A DNA stretch of 60,058 nt from an uncultured Bacilli bacterium (lineage in GTDB: Bacteria > Bacillota_I > Bacilli_A > RF39 > UBA660): positions 1-60,058 of the forward strand of contig CANQBF010000001.1 of the NCBI GenBank assembly GCA_947588895.1, in the 5' to 3' direction. Shown here piece after piece: positions 49,559 through 56,544 of the stretch (its first letter is position 1; every line of letters starts with the position of its first letter). Position numbers and translations under genes: made by a program. The notes under the pieces were generated by a model. The model was given only the letters and a program-made list of their open reading frames with translations, was not told where the DNA came from and searched no databases.

Positions 49559-49849
49559 ATGCGAACTAAAAAGACAAATAGGGAAAGATTTCGACTTTTT
49601 TTAATTGCTACTACTATGATATGTTTAGTAGGTATTTTAGTTGTCAGTGTTTATAGTGATTGGAAAAAAATATTAGCTAATCAAAAGTTAGAAGTAGAAT
49701 TAAATCAAAAATATGAGTATTTACAAGATGAAGAAGAAAAGTTAAATGATGAAATAGATAAACTTGGTGATGATAGTTATTTAGCCAGATATGCTAAAGA
49801 AAAATATATGTTATCAAGTGAGGGAGATACTATAATTAAGATGAAATAA
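49559..49849 (+). CDS. divIC: Septum formation initiator DivIC/FtsB family
   Basis: 96 aa with an N-terminal TM helix followed by a coiled coil. It follows yabP-yabQ. Confidence 0.85.
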   Translation: MRTKKTNRERFRLFLIATTMICLVGILVVSVYSDWKKILANQKLEVELNQKYEYLQDEEEKLNDEIDKLGDDSYLARYAKEKYMLSSEGDTIIKMK

Positions 49850-49851
49850 TA

Positions 49852-49877
49852 AAAAAAGTGTTGAAAAACACTTTTTT
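49852..49877 (+). terminator. Intrinsic terminator after divIC
   Basis: AAAAAGTGTT-GAAA-AACACTTTTT. Confidence 0.75.
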
Positions 49878-49958
49878 ACATTTATTTTTCTTTATTTTAA
49901 TGTTATAATCATGTTGAATTGAGAAGTCCATCTATGGGCTTTTGGAGGTGTATCCTTT

Positions 49959-52709
49959 ATGGTCGGAGAAATATATAAATTATTAGTTACTTTATTTTTA
50001 AGGATAGATAGTATAGTATACGGAATTATAAGTGTTTTATATCAAGTATTTATTGCTGTTGCTTCGTTAAAAATGTTTAATGATGGAATATATAGTAGAA
50101 TTGAAAATATGGTATATATGATTGTGGGAGTTTTTGCCTTATTTTTAATTGCTTATAATTTATTAAAACACATGATTGATGCAGATTTATCTAAAAGTGC
50201 TACTGATGTAAAAAAGGTAGTTCTTAATTTAGTTACATCTATGTTTATGATAATGTTAATTCCTATAACTTTTAATTTATTATTTTCAGTACAAAATGCT
50301 ATTTTAAAACAAGACTTAATAGGAAAATTATTTCAGCCATATACAACGGATTTTGAAAATAGTGAGCATTTAAGTAGTTGTCTCGATTCTAGAGTTATTG
50401 TTTATCAAGAAGATAGCGATAGTTATGTACAAACTGATGATTCACAAGCAGTTAATGATGTAAAATTAAAGTGTTATGGTAATTTAGCTGCATTACAAAT
50501 GTTTCAAGGGTTCTTTTATCCTGCAATTGTAAATGATCCAGAAAATATTCAAAATTATCAAAATGGTACTAGTTTAACAAATACATTAAATGAAGCTGCG
50601 GCATCTGTTCATCCTGAAGATTCGACAGCATTAGAAAAACTTGGAAGTGCTGTTAAATGGTTATTTGAACCATTACCAATGAAAGTTTTTGATATTGTAA
50701 ACGCGTTTAGAAATTCTGATGAAAATGATAATTCTGATTTTTCATTGGCGGATGCATATGATGTTGCTGTTGCTTCTGGTGATTTTGCTATATTTGAGCT
50801 GTTTACTGAAAATGTAGAAAGCGGTGAAATTAAATATACATTCTTAGCGTCAACGATTGCTGGTGGATTTGCTTGTTATGTATTATTATTATATTGTTTA
50901 GATGTTGCTGTAAGAGCAGTAAAACTTGCGTTTTATCAAATGATTGCACCATTCCCAATAATGATGAGAGTAGTACCTAAAAAAGGAACAGAAATATTTA
51001 ATAATTGGCTCAAATGTGTAAGTACAACTTATTTTGAAATATTTTCAAGGCTTGCTATACTATATTTTGGAATGTTTTTTGTATCAAATATATTTACTTT
51101 AATGGGTGAAGGATTAAGTAGTAAGAATATTGGTTATAATTTGATGTCTGGTAGTTTATTTGGTGTAGGTGTTTGGCTTTTAGTGAAAGCTGTAATAATT
51201 TTAGGAATTTTTGCTTTTATGAAAAAACTTCCAGAATTATTAAAACAAATTGTACCATCTTCTGATAAATTCTCATTAAAATTATGGGATCATTTAAAAG
51301 ATTCATTTGCTATACCTGCAGCAATTGGCGGATTTGCTGGTGGAATGGTTGCTAGTGGTGGTAATCCATTAGCAGGAATTAGAGCAGCTGGTAAAGGTTG
51401 GAAAGATAGTTCATTAGCTGGTATTGGTGCTGAACATAAAAGACGGCTTGCAAAACTAGAAGCGGATAAAAAATCTAGAGCTGCTGGTCAATCAACTACT
51501 GAAAGAATGGCACATCGAATGTTAGAAAGAGGAAGAGGATATTTAGGACTTGATTCAGGTGTAGATGAACTTAATAGAAAGATAGATAGAGGCGAAGGGT
51601 TAAGAAAAGGTACAACAATTACTGCAATTAATGATTCAATGGATAATATACAATTATTGGATAGCGAATCTCATCATATTGGTACTATTAATCGTGGAGA
51701 TACTAGAATTTATGATAAAGATACTAAAACTAATGCTGAAACTAGTCTTGAAATGTGGAAAAGAAGACAATCTGATATTAAAGAAATTGCTAATAAATAT
51801 GATGAAACTGCTTCAGGTATGAGAGCAGTTGCTAGTAGTGCTAAAGCTTTTGATGATGTTATGGAATCCAAATTATTAAAAGGAGATTCAAAATATACAT
51901 TGCAATACTCAATGTTTAAAGATAATCAAGGAAAATATCATGTTGTTTATGGTGTAGATGAAAATGATTTCAAAAATAATTTAAGAGCAAAATTAAATGA
52001 GTTAGGTTATGCAGATGGAGACCAAAAAGATGCCTTAATTAACTCTCTATCAGAGTCAAGTTCAATAGGTAATTTAAGTACATTCCAAAATTATACGGCT
52101 GGTTTCTTAAGAAAGCATGATGGTGAAGATTTAGGTAATTCATATGATGAAATTAACCAATCTGGTACAAAAGCTATGGATGCATTAAAGAAACTTGCAG
52201 AAAGAGAATTAATATTAGGTGATGACAATGGTACTGGTAGAATGATTAAAGCTGGTCAAGGTAGTCTAAATACATTAATAAATAATATAGTTGCTGGTAA
52301 ATTATTAGAACTTCAAGCAACAAGAGATGTTGATGGTACTATTACTAGCGCTACTTTAGATAGATTAAGTAATATTCAAGTGGGTTCTTATACTTTAGAT
52401 TTAACTGCGCCTGGTTTTGAATCAAGATTACAAGCTGCTCTAAGGAATGGACAATTCACAGCTGATGAATTAATTTCAGCTTTGAAAAATTTAGAAACTG
52501 CCGCTACTAATGTTGAAACTGAAAAGACTAGTGATGCTGGTAAGATTAATCAAAGATTAAATGAAGCAGATTCTCAAGTTAAAGCTCATACAAGATTCAT
52601 TGAAACTGGTAATAAAGCTATTGATATTGAAAAAAGAGGAAATGTATATACTGCACAACAAGCTACCACGGATTATATTAATAAAACAAAAGGCGGTAAT
52701 AGTCAATGA
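49959..52709 (+). CDS. Large polytopic membrane protein (916 aa) with an extracytoplasmic loop of about 180 aa and an alpha-helical C-terminal domain of about 450 aa; function unknown
   Basis: It has a GGAGGTG RBS and about 8 predicted TM helices. The helix-rich segment VAVRAVKLAFYQMIAPFPIMM is followed by a Gly-rich TM helix (IGGFAGGMVASGG). The soluble parts are visibly less K/N/I-biased than neighbouring genes. Confidence 0.8.
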   Translation: MVGEIYKLLVTLFLRIDSIVYGIISVLYQVFIAVASLKMFNDGIYSRIENMVYMIVGVFALFLIAYNLLKHMIDADLSKSATDVKKVVLNLVTSMFMIMLIPITFNLLFSVQNAILKQDLIGKLFQPYTTDFENSEHLSSCLDSRVIVYQEDSDSYVQTDDSQAVNDVKLKCYGNLAALQMFQGFFYPAIVNDPENIQNYQNGTSLTNTLNEAAASVHPEDSTALEKLGSAVKWLFEPLPMKVFDIVNAFRNSDENDNSDFSLADAYDVAVASGDFAIFELFTENVESGEIKYTFLASTIAGGFACYVLLLYCLDVAVRAVKLAFYQMIAPFPIMMRVVPKKGTEIFNNWLKCVSTTYFEIFSRLAILYFGMFFVSNIFTLMGEGLSSKNIGYNLMSGSLFGVGVWLLVKAVIILGIFAFMKKLPELLKQIVPSSDKFSLKLWDHLKDSFAIPAAIGGFAGGMVASGGNPLAGIRAAGKGWKDSSLAGIGAEHKRRLAKLEADKKSRAAGQSTTERMAHRMLERGRGYLGLDSGVDELNRKIDRGEGLRKGTTITAINDSMDNIQLLDSESHHIGTINRGDTRIYDKDTKTNAETSLEMWKRRQSDIKEIANKYDETASGMRAVASSAKAFDDVMESKLLKGDSKYTLQYSMFKDNQGKYHVVYGVDENDFKNNLRAKLNELGYADGDQKDALINSLSESSSIGNLSTFQNYTAGFLRKHDGEDLGNSYDEINQSGTKAMDALKKLAERELILGDDNGTGRMIKAGQGSLNTLINNIVAGKLLELQATRDVDGTITSATLDRLSNIQVGSYTLDLTAPGFESRLQAALRNGQFTADELISALKNLETAATNVETEKTSDAGKINQRLNEADSQVKAHTRFIETGNKAIDIEKRGNVYTAQQATTDYINKTKGGNSQ

Positions 52710-53050
52710 TTTTCTTTCTAATATTTATCATATCTTTTGTTATATATTTTCTAGTAGATTATATTATATTAAAACATTCTAAAAAGTTACAAATAAATGA
52801 ATTTAAATATTTAAAGAAAAGATTTAAATATTCCAAGAAATTTGAAGAAACAAATAAAATAAAAGTGACTTGTAGTTTATTAAATGCATTAATTATGAGT
52901 GTTGTATGTACGGTAATGGTATATTGTAATTTTAAAGTTTATATATCATTACCTCTTGCATTTGTTTTATTAATATTACTTATATATAGTGTTTATGGTA
53001 TATATGGTAATATATTAAAAAAGGTTGATGAAAATGAAAAAAATAAATAA
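52706..53050 (+). CDS. Small membrane protein (114 aa, about 3 TM)
   Basis: Its start overlaps the stop of the 916-aa gene (ATGA), which suggests translational coupling. Confidence 0.65.
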   Translation: MIFFLIFIISFVIYFLVDYIILKHSKKLQINEFKYLKKRFKYSKKFEETNKIKVTCSLLNALIMSVVCTVMVYCNFKVYISLPLAFVLLILLIYSVYGIYGNILKKVDENEKNK

Positions 53051-53225
53051 AAAGGAAAAAACAATATCAACTAAAAAAAGTTTAATCGAATCATCATTAT
53101 TCTTCGTTTTCTTTTTAATACTAATAGTTATTTATCCTAGTTTGGGTGGTTTTATCTTTTTATTATTTAGTGGAATATTGATGTTAATATTTGCAATAAG
53201 ATATATAAATGAAAATAAGGACTAA
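53025..53225 (+). CDS. Small membrane protein (66 aa, 2 TM)
   Basis: It overlaps the preceding gene and is the last gene before a bidirectional terminator. Confidence 0.55.
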   Translation: MMKMKKINKKEKTISTKKSLIESSLFFVFFLILIVIYPSLGGFIFLLFSGILMLIFAIRYINENKD

Positions 53226-53240
53226 CGCAGTCCTTATTTT
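53217..53240. terminator. Bidirectional terminator hairpin between convergent genes
   Basis: AAGGACT-AACGC-AGTCCTT spans both stop codons (53223..53225 and 53234..53236). Confidence 0.6.
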
Positions 53241-53806
53241 ATTATTTCATCAATTAAACCATAATCTAATGCTTCTGAAGCGTCCATAAAATTATCTCGC
53301 TCAGTATCATTTTCAATTGTTTTTAAGTCTTTTCCTGTTACATTAGATAAAATAGAATTTAATTTATTTTTAATTTTTATAATTCTTTCTGCTGCTATTT
53401 TAATGTCAGTAGCTTGACCTTGAGTACCTCCAAGTGGTTGATGAATCATTATTTCAGAATTGGGTAAACTACATCTTTTACCTTTTGTACCATTTGCTAA
53501 TAAGAATGCTCCCATACTTGCAGCAAGACCAATACAAATAGTTCTAACATCACTTTTAATATAATTCATTGTGTCATAAATTGCCATGCCACTTGTTATA
53601 CTTCCACCGGGTGAATTAATATATAAATATATTTCATTATGATTTAAACTATCTAAATATAGTAATTCTGATACAACAATACTGGCTAAATTATCATTAA
53701 TTTCGCCATTGACAAAAACTATACGATCATTTAATAACCTAGAGTATAAATCATAAGCATATTCTTTATTACTGCTTTTTTCAATAACTGTTGGAATTAT
53801 ATTCAT
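53234..53806 (-). CDS. clpP: ATP-dependent Clp protease proteolytic subunit
   Basis: 190 aa with the catalytic Ser context [11 protein letters not shown], a His in MIHQP and the conserved ClpP core. Confidence 0.96.
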
Positions 53807-53900: not shown

Positions 53901-55547
53901 ATGGAAAACATTATAATTACACTTACAAATGGTGCAAAAAATGAATTTGTTAAGAATACAACTTACTATGAAATTAGTAAGGAGTTTGGCTTGGGAAAAG
54001 AAATTTTAGGTGCTAAAGTTAATAACCAATTTGTTCCTTTAAATAAAAAGGCTACAACAAGTGAAATCGTTCAATTTGTAGACGTAACAGATGTTACCGG
54101 TAATAAGGTTTATAAAAGTGGGTTGAAATTTATTTTTGAAGTAGCTTTAAAAGAAGTATTTCCTACTTTAGAAATTACTTATCAACATAGTGTTCCAAAA
54201 GGTTTTCTTGGAGAAATTATTGGCGATAAAATGATTACTCAAGAAGATTTAAAAAAGATTAAAGTGGTAATGAATAAAATAATTGATGAAGATATACCAA
54301 TTAAAAAGTTTACTGTAAAAAATAAAGAAGCAATTGATTTTTATAAAGAAAGAAATGGCTTAGAAAAAGCTTTAAATATTCAAAATATTTCAGACTCAGT
54401 TGTTACTTTATATGAGCTTAGAGGTAGATATAATTATTTTTATTCAGATATGCCTTATTCAACTGGTAGTATAAAAGATTATGATATTGTTTTTTTAGGA
54501 AGAAATAGAGTTGTATTTGTTGTGCCTAGTAAAGAAACTAATGGGGAATTACCGGAATATGTTCATTATGATAATATTATTAATTCATTTTTAGTTGGTA
54601 AGACATGGCTTGAAACATTAGATATGCAATATGTTACAAGTATTAATCAAACTATTGGAAGTGGCAAGATAAAAGAATTTATAAAATCTTGTGAATTAGT
54701 ATTTAATATGAATATTTCTAAAGTAGTTGATGATATTAGTAATAATAGGAATATTAAATTTGTTTTGATTGCTGGACCTTCTTCTAGTGGTAAAACTACT
54801 ACCACAAAAAGATTATCACAATATTTTTTAGCTAAAGGGTTTGACCCAATATGTTTATCTATTGATGATTACTTTTTAGAAAGAGTAGATTCACCAAGAG
54901 ATGAATATGGTAATTATAATTTTGAATGTTTAGCAGCTATAGATATTAAATTATTTAATAAAGTATTAAAAGGATTATTAAATAATGAAGACGTATCATT
55001 ACCAACATATAATTTTGTAACTGGTAAAAAAGAATATAATAATCAAGTTGTTCATTTAAAAGAAAATAGTATTATATTAATTGAAGGATTACATGCTTTA
55101 AATGATGAATTATTACCAGAGATTGATAATAAATTAAAATATAAAATATATTTAAGTCCGTTTATACCTCTTAATATAGATAAACATAATTATATTTCAA
55201 CCATTGATTTAAGATTAATAAGAAGAATAATAAGAGATAATCGAACAAGAAATATATCGGTTAATGAAACCATTGATTTATGGCAGAGCGTTAGAAAGGG
55301 TGAAGAATTATATATATTCCCATTTATTCATCAAGCTGATACCATAATTAATACAGCTTTACCATATGAACTAGGGGTTTTAAAAGTGTATATTGAACCA
55401 CTTTTAAGAAGTGTTAATATTGATAGTGATTATTATGAAGAAGCTAAAAGATTATTAAGCTTTTTAAAAGTGTTTTATCCAATAACAAGTGAATACGTTA
55501 ATAAAGATTCGATACTAAGAGAATTTATAGGAGGAAATGATGATTAG
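53901..55547 (+). CDS. Fusion protein: ThrRS-like TGS/second-additional-domain N-terminus + uridine/nucleoside kinase domain
   Basis: 548 aa with a P-loop (AGPSSSGKTTT) in the C-terminal half. The N-terminal roughly 250 aa show the TGS-SAD pattern known from clostridial udk-like proteins. Confidence 0.75.
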   Translation: MENIIITLTNGAKNEFVKNTTYYEISKEFGLGKEILGAKVNNQFVPLNKKATTSEIVQFVDVTDVTGNKVYKSGLKFIFEVALKEVFPTLEITYQHSVPKGFLGEIIGDKMITQEDLKKIKVVMNKIIDEDIPIKKFTVKNKEAIDFYKERNGLEKALNIQNISDSVVTLYELRGRYNYFYSDMPYSTGSIKDYDIVFLGRNRVVFVVPSKETNGELPEYVHYDNIINSFLVGKTWLETLDMQYVTSINQTIGSGKIKEFIKSCELVFNMNISKVVDDISNNRNIKFVLIAGPSSSGKTTTTKRLSQYFLAKGFDPICLSIDDYFLERVDSPRDEYGNYNFECLAAIDIKLFNKVLKGLLNNEDVSLPTYNFVTGKKEYNNQVVHLKENSIILIEGLHALNDELLPEIDNKLKYKIYLSPFIPLNIDKHNYISTIDLRLIRRIIRDNRTRNISVNETIDLWQSVRKGEELYIFPFIHQADTIINTALPYELGVLKVYIEPLLRSVNIDSDYYEEAKRLLSFLKVFYPITSEYVNKDSILREFIGGNDD

Positions 55548-56544
55548 AGTAGCGATTAATGGATTTGGAAGAATAGGAAGAATAGCATTTAGGGAGATGA
55601 TTACAGGTACTGATTTTAATATTGTGGCAATTAATGATACTTCAAATGCTGAAGAATTATGTCATTTATTAAAATATGATACTATACATAGGTCATTCCA
55701 TGAAAATGAAATAACATTTGAAGGTAATGAAATAATAATTAAAGGTCAAAAAAGAATTAAAGTATATTCTGAATTAGACCCAATTAATTTACCTTGGAAA
55801 GATTTAAATGTTGATTTAGTTTTAGAATGTACTGGTGCATTTACTGATTATGATGGTGCTCATAAGCATATTGAAGCTGGTGCTAAAAAAGTATTAATTT
55901 CAGCTCCTGGTAAAGGAAATATGAAAACTATAGTATATAATGTTAATGATAATATTTTAGATGGTAGTGAACAAATTGTTTCTAGTGCATCTTGTACAAC
56001 AAATTGTTTAGCTCCAGTATTAAAAGTAATTGAAGATGCTTTTGGAATTGAAAAAGGTTTTATGAGTACCATTCATGCATTTACGAATGACCAAGCAACA
56101 CTTGATATAACTCATAAAAAAGGAATATATGCAAGACGTGGTAGAGCTGCTAGCCAAAATATTATTCCAGCATCAACTGGTGCTGCTTCAGCTATTGGTT
56201 TAGTAATACCTTCATTACAAGGTAAGATGGATGGTGGAGCATTTAGAGTACCTGTTTGTGATGGCTCACTTATTGATGTCACTTTAGAATTAAAAAGTAA
56301 TCCAACTGTAGAAAATATTAATGATTTATTTAAAAATAAACAAAATGAAACATTAAAGTTTACGACTGACCCTATTGTATCAAGTGATATTATTGGTAAA
56401 AGATGTGGTGCTTTAGTTGATGGACTTCTTACAAATTGTGTAGAAGTAGATGGTAAAAAATTATATAAAATTGTTGCATGGTATGATAATGAACTTGGTT
56501 ATACTGTACAAATGTTAAGAACTGCTAAAGTTATGTTCAAATAA
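55537..56544 (+). CDS. gap: Type I glyceraldehyde-3-phosphate dehydrogenase
   Basis: 335 aa with NGFGRIGR and the active site SCTTNCLAP. Asp in AINDTS suggests NAD preference. It overlaps the upstream gene by 11 nt. Confidence 0.95.
   Translation: MMIRVAINGFGRIGRIAFREMITGTDFNIVAINDTSNAEELCHLLKYDTIHRSFHENEITFEGNEIIIKGQKRIKVYSELDPINLPWKDLNVDLVLECTGAFTDYDGAHKHIEAGAKKVLISAPGKGNMKTIVYNVNDNILDGSEQIVSSASCTTNCLAPVLKVIEDAFGIEKGFMSTIHAFTNDQATLDITHKKGIYARRGRAASQNIIPASTGAASAIGLVIPSLQGKMDGGAFRVPVCDGSLIDVTLELKSNPTVENINDLFKNKQNETLKFTTDPIVSSDIIGKRCGALVDGLLTNCVEVDGKKLYKIVAWYDNELGYTVQMLRTAKVMFK

Follow-up and report, generated by a model that had tools for sequence, protein, structure and literature searches.

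Extended VirB6 proteins of 700–900 amino acids (aa), which carry extra and poorly structured domains, are typical of MPF-FA type IV secretion systems (T4SSs); they are recognized as polytopic proteins in which at least about five hydrophobic helices are combined with large hydrophilic domains in the center or at the C-terminus (FEMS review, PMC12857230). A candidate of this kind is encoded by gene 49 of the Bacillus subtilis plasmid pLS20, which is described as a "putative extended-VirB6" of 906 aa (PMC8557374). Here, we analyze a three-gene operon that is located between divIC and clpP and is led by a gene for a 916-aa VirB6-like protein. The analyzed window of 60,058 nucleotides is the whole contig C1 (CANQBF010000001.1) of the assembly GCA_947588895.1 from an uncultured Bacilli bacterium (hereafter G000), which comprises 1.1 Mb in 81 contigs with a GC content of ~24%. 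We propose, with an estimated probability of about 0.7, that this operon is the trans-encoded VirB6 module of a chromosomal, relaxase-less machine that combines Tad-like and T4SS components and is encoded on a different contig, C7.

Family assignment and topology of the 916-aa protein

The homolog search with the 916-aa protein identified ten relatives, three of which share the membrane domain at 45–69% identity and seven at 25–40%; the phmmer E-values against P0010 and P0011 range from 1e-21 to 2.8e-25 (1.0e-21 for P0011). One of these relatives, P0011, scores above the gathering cut-off of the Pfam family TrbL_4 (32.2 vs. 27 bits), and three others reach 20–23 bits. No further relatives were added by a second, word-based homolog search with alignment, and tblastn searches with the 916-aa protein and P0011 gave no match among 72,556 plasmids. 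When the family profile was used in a full HMMER scan, representatives of 4,033 clusters matched at E ≤ 1e-3. Among 60 representatives scanned against Pfam, 20 match TrbL_4 (PF19597; E ≤ 0.01, best E 1.8e-9) and two match TrbL (PF04610), while a T4SS_pilin match covers the N-terminal helices in 9 out of 60. Family members also match the NCBIfam models Mbov_0396 (NF045889) and MMCAP2_0566 (NF045848) with 16–33 bits over the TrbL-like core (cut-offs 70 and 90, respectively) and pLS20_p028 (NF045890) with 12–34 bits (cut-off 150); the 916-aa protein itself matches none of these models.

The genomic context of the family is highly consistent. In 72 of 80 further genomes, the family gene is located directly upstream of genes for PrgI/VirB3-like, TraC-like, and VirB4 proteins, and the same order (VirB6-like, PrgI-like, TraC-like, VirB4) was observed in eight congeners as well as in L003 and L006, with VirD4 encoded further downstream in all cases in which the retrieved stretch was long enough to include it. 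The PrgI-like protein of ~105 aa matches PF12666 with 24.5 bits. The linkage to VirB3-like and VirB4 genes thus holds for the family, whereas the copy at the divIC site is unlinked. Judged from gene order, this context settles the VirB6 assignment of the family, and comparison with its members supports the classification of the 916-aa protein as a divergent extended-VirB6-type member of an unmodelled subfamily, with the caveats that a direct model match fails and that the fold comparison gave no match. The original prediction, which was made from the letters of the window and a list of its open reading frames (ORFs), had guessed at a VirB6/TrbL/TcpH-type protein, and this guess is borne out by the indirect TrbL_4 link through P0011 and the family and by the T4SS gene context. 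Its second comparison, with mobilome membrane proteins of Mollicutes, survives in part, as the family members do match Mbov_0396 and MMCAP2_0566 and remain below the curated cut-offs.

By hydropathy, the transmembrane (TM) helices of the 916-aa protein are located at residues ~8–40, 48–73, and 87–116 and then at ~296–321, 361–383, and 403–421. The loop between the two groups (117–295, 179 aa) is acidic, with 30 D/E vs. 10 K/R residues, and contains two Cys residues; the last TM helix is followed by a hydrophilic, G/A/T/D-rich tail of ~490 aa. The six predicted TM helices, the long loop, and the tail agree with the topology described for extended VirB6 proteins. Compared with the layout that had been proposed earlier, the three N-terminal helices and the Cys-containing loop of ~180 aa are retained, but the second group consists of three helices rather than four to five, and the glycine zipper is not a TM helix: the corresponding segment (~455–478) stays below TM hydrophobicity and is rich in K/R on both sides. 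According to the positive-inside rule, these flanks point to a six-TM protein with both termini inside and a putative cytoplasmic tail. The C-terminal domain of the extended VirB6 protein TcpH is cytoplasmic as well, which matches this prediction.

The block AVRAVKLAFYQMIAPFPIMM is the most conserved one across the whole family, and the family-invariant residues (F62, P102, F105, Q112, R319, P331, and F420) are all kept in the 916-aa protein. An AlphaFold2 model built from 89 sequences has a mean pLDDT of 72.7, with values of 85–95 across the TM helices; an earlier model from 11 sequences was poor (pLDDT 46.6) and was set aside.

The secretion cluster on contig C7 and its VirB6 position

The original prediction described the operon as stand-alone and noted that no VirB4, coupling ATPase, or relaxase is encoded nearby. 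The latter statement is correct for the window, where no VirB4/VirD4 T4SS ATPases were found, but not for the genome: a search of the remaining contigs for T4SS components, which had been proposed along with that statement, revealed a complete Tad-like plus T4SS cluster on C7 that includes both VirB4 and VirD4. The cluster is located between proS and the rhodanese/RmuC genes, and all its reading frames are open. Its Tad-like set encodes an RcpC-like protein, a T2SSE ATPase, two TadB/C-sized membrane proteins, small pilins, and a 322-aa protein, and its T4SS part encodes PrgI-like, TraC-like, and VirB4 proteins, a hydrolase, a 277-aa protein, and VirD4. In addition, four consecutive genes of this cluster (C7:14149–17342; 120, 267, 460, and 147 aa) share a common C-terminal two-helix pilin-like part.

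The VirB6 slot of the C7 cluster is empty. The end of the 147-aa gene and the start of the PrgI-like gene are only 16 bp apart, and the ribosome-binding region of the latter is the same as in the congener G017, where an 836-aa VirB6-like gene intervenes. The C7-encoded VirB4 shows 88–94% identity to its counterparts in eight of nine congeners, and this conservation implies that the C7 machine is under strong constraint. A relaxase was sought in the assembly with PF03432, PF02486, and pLS20 MobL, and none of these queries gave a match. The same division into two loci was observed in G006 (GCA_947632205.1), another uncultured Bacilli bacterium, whose VirB4 is 91.5% identical to that of C7. There, divIC is followed by genes for an 863-aa, a 114-aa, and a 69-aa protein and then by clpP, the T4SS cluster has a 20-bp gap at the VirB6 position, and the operon at the divIC site is the sole VirB6-like match. 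The stand-alone label is therefore contradicted in both genomes by a Tad-like plus T4SS cluster with an empty VirB6 slot.

The G000 assembly contains one more VirB6-like gene, which is partial and very divergent and is located on the short contig C75 (2,824 bp) behind a gene for a secreted, Cys-rich protein of ~560 aa with a pilin-like C-terminal part. This paralog might be the true VirB6 partner of the C7 machine, in which case the divIC-site gene would be a spare or a part of a second system, and the order on C75, i.e., a pilin-like C-terminal fragment, the secreted Cys-rich protein, and the N-terminal 308 aa of the VirB6-like protein, does resemble that of the cluster. We consider this explanation improbable for several reasons. 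C7 runs unbroken through the VirB6 slot, where C75 therefore cannot belong; the assembly contains no second VirB4, VirD4, PrgI-like, or TraC-like gene; the C75 copy has at most 30% identity to proteins of the genus and may be mis-binned or mobile; and G006 shows the same split without such a copy. An origin of C75 as the excised in-cluster gene was also rejected, given the continuity of C7 and the absence of a close relative of C75 in the genus.

The divIC–clpP operon, its small genes, and its tail

The operon is flanked upstream by divIC (49559–49849, plus strand; 96 aa, Pfam DivIC E 1.3e-11) and downstream by the convergent clpP gene (53234–53806, minus strand; 81–92% identity to clpP of congeners). 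Its three genes, as delineated from the ORF list and hydropathy, are all on the plus strand and encode the 916-aa VirB6-like protein (49959–52709), a 114-aa protein with three TM helices (52706–53050), and a 66-aa small membrane protein (53025–53225). The ORFs overlap in the way that had led the original prediction to call them coupled: ATGA joins the stop of the 916-aa gene with the start of the 114-aa gene, and the 66-aa gene starts inside the 3′ end of the 114-aa gene (TTG at 53025, or ATG at 53028 or 53034). The 66-aa product had been viewed as a two-TM protein; its membrane nature is retained, and one segment only (aa 40–58) passes the hydropathy threshold.

Terminators were proposed on both sides of the operon, and both are supported. 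The divIC terminator (49852–49877, plus strand) is a hairpin of −10.4 kcal/mol followed by a 3′ T run (z −3.5, 0 of 200 shuffles as good); it is evident from folding and is absent from the consensus scan list because it has fewer than three G-C pairs, at least three being required by the scan rule. Downstream, the hairpin scan and folding both found a two-way terminator (53212–53240, both strands) that is common to the operon and clpP, with −13.3 kcal/mol on the plus strand (z −6.5) and −13.2 kcal/mol on the minus strand (z −4.9). Reading of the sequence likewise confirmed the extended −10 element predicted near 49900, namely TGTTATAAT at 49901–49909 on the plus strand, which has no good −35 element; the block AATGnTATAATC is invariant in 4 out of 4 operon-carrying lineages, whose proteins are only 45–69% identical. 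A GGAGG sequence is located 9 nt upstream of the ATG codon of the 916-aa gene. The dN/dS ratios calculated against the closest relative are 0.27 for the conserved part of the 916-aa gene, 0.10 for the 114-aa gene, and 0.24 for the 66-aa gene; all three genes are under purifying selection. As a separate observation, the region of the 114-aa gene (window 52703–53298) shows 88% DNA identity and a dS of 0.19 to the relative L146, compared with dS values of 0.54 for divIC and 0.65 for the VirB6 membrane domain; this low divergence may reflect recent recombination or a constraint that acts on the DNA or RNA itself.

The operon is conserved beside divIC in relatives, a point that the original prediction had singled out for checking: the same site and promoter were identified in four lineages, which are G000, G006, and the metagenomic P0002 and P0004. 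Within the genus, 2 of the 25 genomes searched carry the operon at this site. In G017, G020, G013, and G018 the site is empty, and divIC and clpP are convergent with their stop codons 8–28 bp apart. The divIC|clpP junction of G001 (L050, G001:C1) contains two other small ORFs on the minus strand (102 and 100 aa). This junction may be a recurrent insertion spot.

The location of the operon after divIC had also been compared with the corresponding slot in Bacillus, which is occupied by yabR and spoIIE, and a lineage-specific envelope or sporulation factor had been considered, with the remark that the 916-aa protein lacks any PP2C motif. The remark is correct, as the SpoIIE PP2C domain (PF07228) was found neither in the 916-aa protein nor in G000 or 41 congeners. 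A relocated protein with a new role of its own in the envelope, division, or sporulation, accompanied by a C7 machine that works without VirB6 or with another one, would be in line with the absence of SpoIIE PP2C from 42 genomes of the genus, the proximity to yabP-yabQ-divIC, the operon's own promoter and terminators, and the new tail without homologs. We regard such a change of function as unlikely, however, because every residue that is invariant in the T4SS-linked family is kept, VirB6 is considered a conserved component of T4SSs (PMC12857230), and no second VirB6-like match was obtained in G006. Moreover, SpoIIE is missing from 42 out of 42 genomes but the operon is present in only 2 out of 25, so the operon is not a general SpoIIE substitute. 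The idea of a sporulation factor in a SpoIIE slot is likewise at odds with the placement of 72 of 80 homologs inside T4SS clusters and with the adjacency of divIC and clpP in four congeners, and a replacement of SpoIIE was rejected given the lack of PP2C in the genus and the T4SS linkage of the homologs. Several other sporulation-related genes were observed despite the absence of SpoIIE PP2C, including the Spo0A gene on C40, yabP, yabQ, spoVG, and yabG in the window, and spoIID in G006 (L001).

Homologs of the 114-aa protein were identified in 40 of 41 congeners and are of two kinds. Strong matches (39–65% identity) occur only directly behind VirB6-like genes that are located outside the cluster, or presumably so in the case of G007, G009, and G055; they were found in G006, G001, G007, G009, and G055 and behind the second VirB6 copy of G011. 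In G001, the corresponding VirB6-125-74 trio is inverted at the edge of the cluster, and G007, G009, and G055 have the same trio. Weaker matches (30–41% identity, 130–160 aa) are usually single-copy; in all five inspected loci (G008, G013, G023, G046, and G005) they directly precede leuS and, where the flank is in view, follow a GH31-like gene. This pre-leuS slot is empty in G001, G009, and G007, where ~85 bp separate the GH31-like gene from leuS; in G000 and G006, leuS has a different upstream neighbor, and G000 has no other copy of the 114-aa family. As the simplest reading of these distributions, a gene of the 114-aa family would have moved from the pre-leuS slot to join VirB6. Open-frame homologs of the 66-aa gene were found only in G006, G001, G007, G009, and G055, always behind a 114-like gene.

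With regard to leuS itself (G000 C26:8564–10978), the surroundings differ in G000 and G006, with the order ligA, a 174-aa gene, and leuS; its identity is 95% between these two genomes and only 46–74% to congeners, compared with ~90% for clpP and VirB4. Judging by these values, leuS of G000 and G006 may have been replaced.

The 916-aa gene itself consists of two parts with different histories. In a DNA comparison with L146/P0002, the closest relative, identity amounts to 79% up to position 51443 and to 88% from 52703 onward, and the intervening 1.26 kb shows no similarity in any frame; protein identity to P0002 is 80–100% and then drops to 5–30% after aa ~557. The conserved part (49959–51443, plus strand) thus covers the membrane domain (residues 1 to ~430) together with the first stretch of the tail, as far as the DNA breakpoint at aa ~495, and the replaced tail cassette (aa ~496–916) covers 51444–52709 on the same strand, the non-homologous DNA ending at 52702 and the stop codon at 52709. 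A search with the tail alone among 5.8 billion proteins retrieved only the protein itself. The tail of P0002, in turn, shares homology with those of G006/P0003 and P0004 (42% over ~410 aa), and this match to the other divIC-site tails shows that it was the tail of the G000 species that was replaced. Another pair of family members, P0005 and P0006, shows 83% identity in the N-terminal domain and 31% in the tail. Based on these alignments, the last ~360–420 residues are interpreted as a swappable cassette that is replaced in this species. A frameshift origin of the tail was rejected, as a tblastx comparison with the relative's tail did not reveal any similarity in other frames.

By analogy, the VirB6-114-66 trio might serve as a portable specificity module of the domesticated T4SS. 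The extended VirB6 would contribute a fast-changing outer loop and an exchangeable tail, and the small inner-membrane proteins encoded immediately downstream would behave like entry-exclusion partners and determine which neighbor cells the machine engages. Entry-exclusion genes follow TraG, in the order traG-traS-traT in F and traG-eex in SXT. We treat this functional extension as rather doubtful.

The evolutionary origin of the operon was also addressed by phylogeny. In the VirB6 tree, the four divIC-site proteins form one clade (support 100) on a stem of 1.86 that falls outside the main clade of the genus. In the VirB4 tree, G000 and G006 group with G017, and the in-cluster VirB6 of G017 is ~27% identical to the divIC-site protein. 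Given this conflict, the gene may not simply have moved but may have been replaced by a diverged allele. The same conflict and the long stem also speak for a foreign remnant of an integrative and conjugative element (ICE) or a plasmid that landed at the divIC–clpP junction and does not cooperate with the C7 machine. Further points in favor of a remnant are that the operon is inserted at this site when four congeners are taken as reference, and that the GC content of the large gene is 24–37% (~30–33% in the tail), compared with ~24% for the contig. Nevertheless, we find such a remnant, which the original prediction had named as a possible refutation, very unlikely. None of the three relaxase queries matched in the assembly, no T4SS ATPase is encoded on the window contig, and no integrase was seen, although none was searched for. 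Furthermore, the arrangement and the promoter are kept in four lineages with 45–69% protein identity, the dN/dS ratios of 0.1–0.27 indicate purifying selection, and the resident cluster lacks VirB6 in exactly those genomes that carry the operon.

One further observation concerns redundancy elsewhere in the assembly. A second gene for glyceraldehyde-3-phosphate dehydrogenase (gap), located at C74:3–770, is 59% identical to the gap gene of the window (55537–56544) and is either a paralog or mis-binned.

Proposed assembly and comparison with known systems

Several results weigh against the interpretation of the operon as a trans-encoded VirB6 module. Direct searches of all three proteins against Pfam, NCBIfam, PHROGs, and PDB sequences gave nothing usable, and relaxing the Pfam threshold to E ≤ 1 did not bring up any TrbL match for the 916-aa protein. 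Among PDB sequences, a profile search yielded nothing below E 0.02, with only noise from the Gly-rich helical tail; Foldseek of the full-length AlphaFold2 model (mean pLDDT 72.7) against PDB, which addressed the resemblance to a solved VirB6 (TrwI of R388), gave no match at E < 1; and hhalign of the family with pLS20 p028 reached 25% probability, over the N-terminal helices only. The assembly is 83% complete and fragmented, and the VirB6-like gene on C75 means that the divIC-site copy is not provably the sole candidate partner of the C7 machine. Finally, the apparent relocation may really be a replacement by a foreign allele, as the VirB6 of the divIC clade is not sister to that of G017, the genome whose VirB4 is closest.

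Under the trans-encoded module interpretation, which we nevertheless favor, a VirB6 gene would have arrived between divIC and clpP in an ancestor of this species, G006, and the two metagenomic lineages, either by a move or by replacement with a diverged allele, and the in-cluster copy would have been lost. The 114-aa gene would have left its place before leuS and joined VirB6. The resulting operon would be expressed from its own promoter, away from the remaining machine genes, and the 916-aa protein would presumably assemble with the C7-encoded PrgI/VirB3-like, TraC-like, VirB4, hydrolase, and VirD4 proteins into a translocon. The 114-aa and 66-aa proteins would be small membrane partners of VirB6, and the tail may be involved in docking ATPases or substrates.

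If this interpretation is correct, an orphan 916-aa protein without a database match becomes a named machine part, and the locus represents a natural experiment, in which a VirB6 gene left a T4SS operon that is otherwise strongly conserved and acquired a separate promoter. The gene of a small membrane protein that is normally encoded elsewhere travels with VirB6 here, and the 114-aa protein is therefore a candidate for an unrecognized accessory subunit of the T4SS in a large group of uncultured gut Bacilli, as the 66-aa protein perhaps is too. Judging from the tail swap and from the disagreement of the VirB6 tree with the VirB4 tree, VirB6 seems to be a fast-evolving and exchangeable part of the machine, which bears on the question of the function of extended-VirB6 domains (PMC12857230). 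The new points are the split-off VirB6 operon with a matching empty slot, the recruitment of the 114-aa gene, and the tail swap.

Among the known systems, the rvh T4SS of Rickettsiales (PMC7648143, PMC3556328) is comparable in that its genes are split over several loci and its VirB6 proteins have large, strain-variable C-terminal extensions; it differs in belonging to diderm intracellular bacteria and in having tandem VirB6 paralogs. The T4SSs of Patescibacteria (PMC12102498; Southlakia, PMC12857230) are comparable in being fixed in the chromosome, of monoderm type, relaxase-less, and encoded in small genomes with an array of divergent VirB2-like pilins, which the four pilin-like genes on C7 resemble (PMC12857230); however, they belong to another phylum, whereas in the system described here a Tad-like module is joined to the T4SS and VirB6 is encoded elsewhere. 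With TrbL_4 and TrbL/VirB6 (PF04610) proteins, the 916-aa protein shares the polytopic core with a D-x3-R-x2-KLA...P-x-P block, but it matches neither model, is three times the size of a classical VirB6, and has a large loop as well as a large tail. An extended VirB6 of the MPF-FA type, TcpH of Clostridium perfringens pCW3, is similar by description, with the same size class, several N-terminal TM helices, and extra, poorly structured domains. The 916-aa gene differs from gene 49 of pLS20, whose product RefSeq annotates as a conjugation system transmembrane protein of the pLS20_p028 family (NF045890), in being chromosomal and located away from its cluster, with no relaxase match and no direct sequence match. 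Nevertheless, both proteins comprise ~900 aa, with TM helices at the N-terminus and a long hydrophilic region at the C-terminus, and pLS20 genes 49–52 are in the same order as the usual loci of the 916-aa family, where a two-TM protein of ~105 aa, a protein of ~190 aa, and VirB4 are encoded downstream in an operon with a TadA-type ATPase and VirD4.

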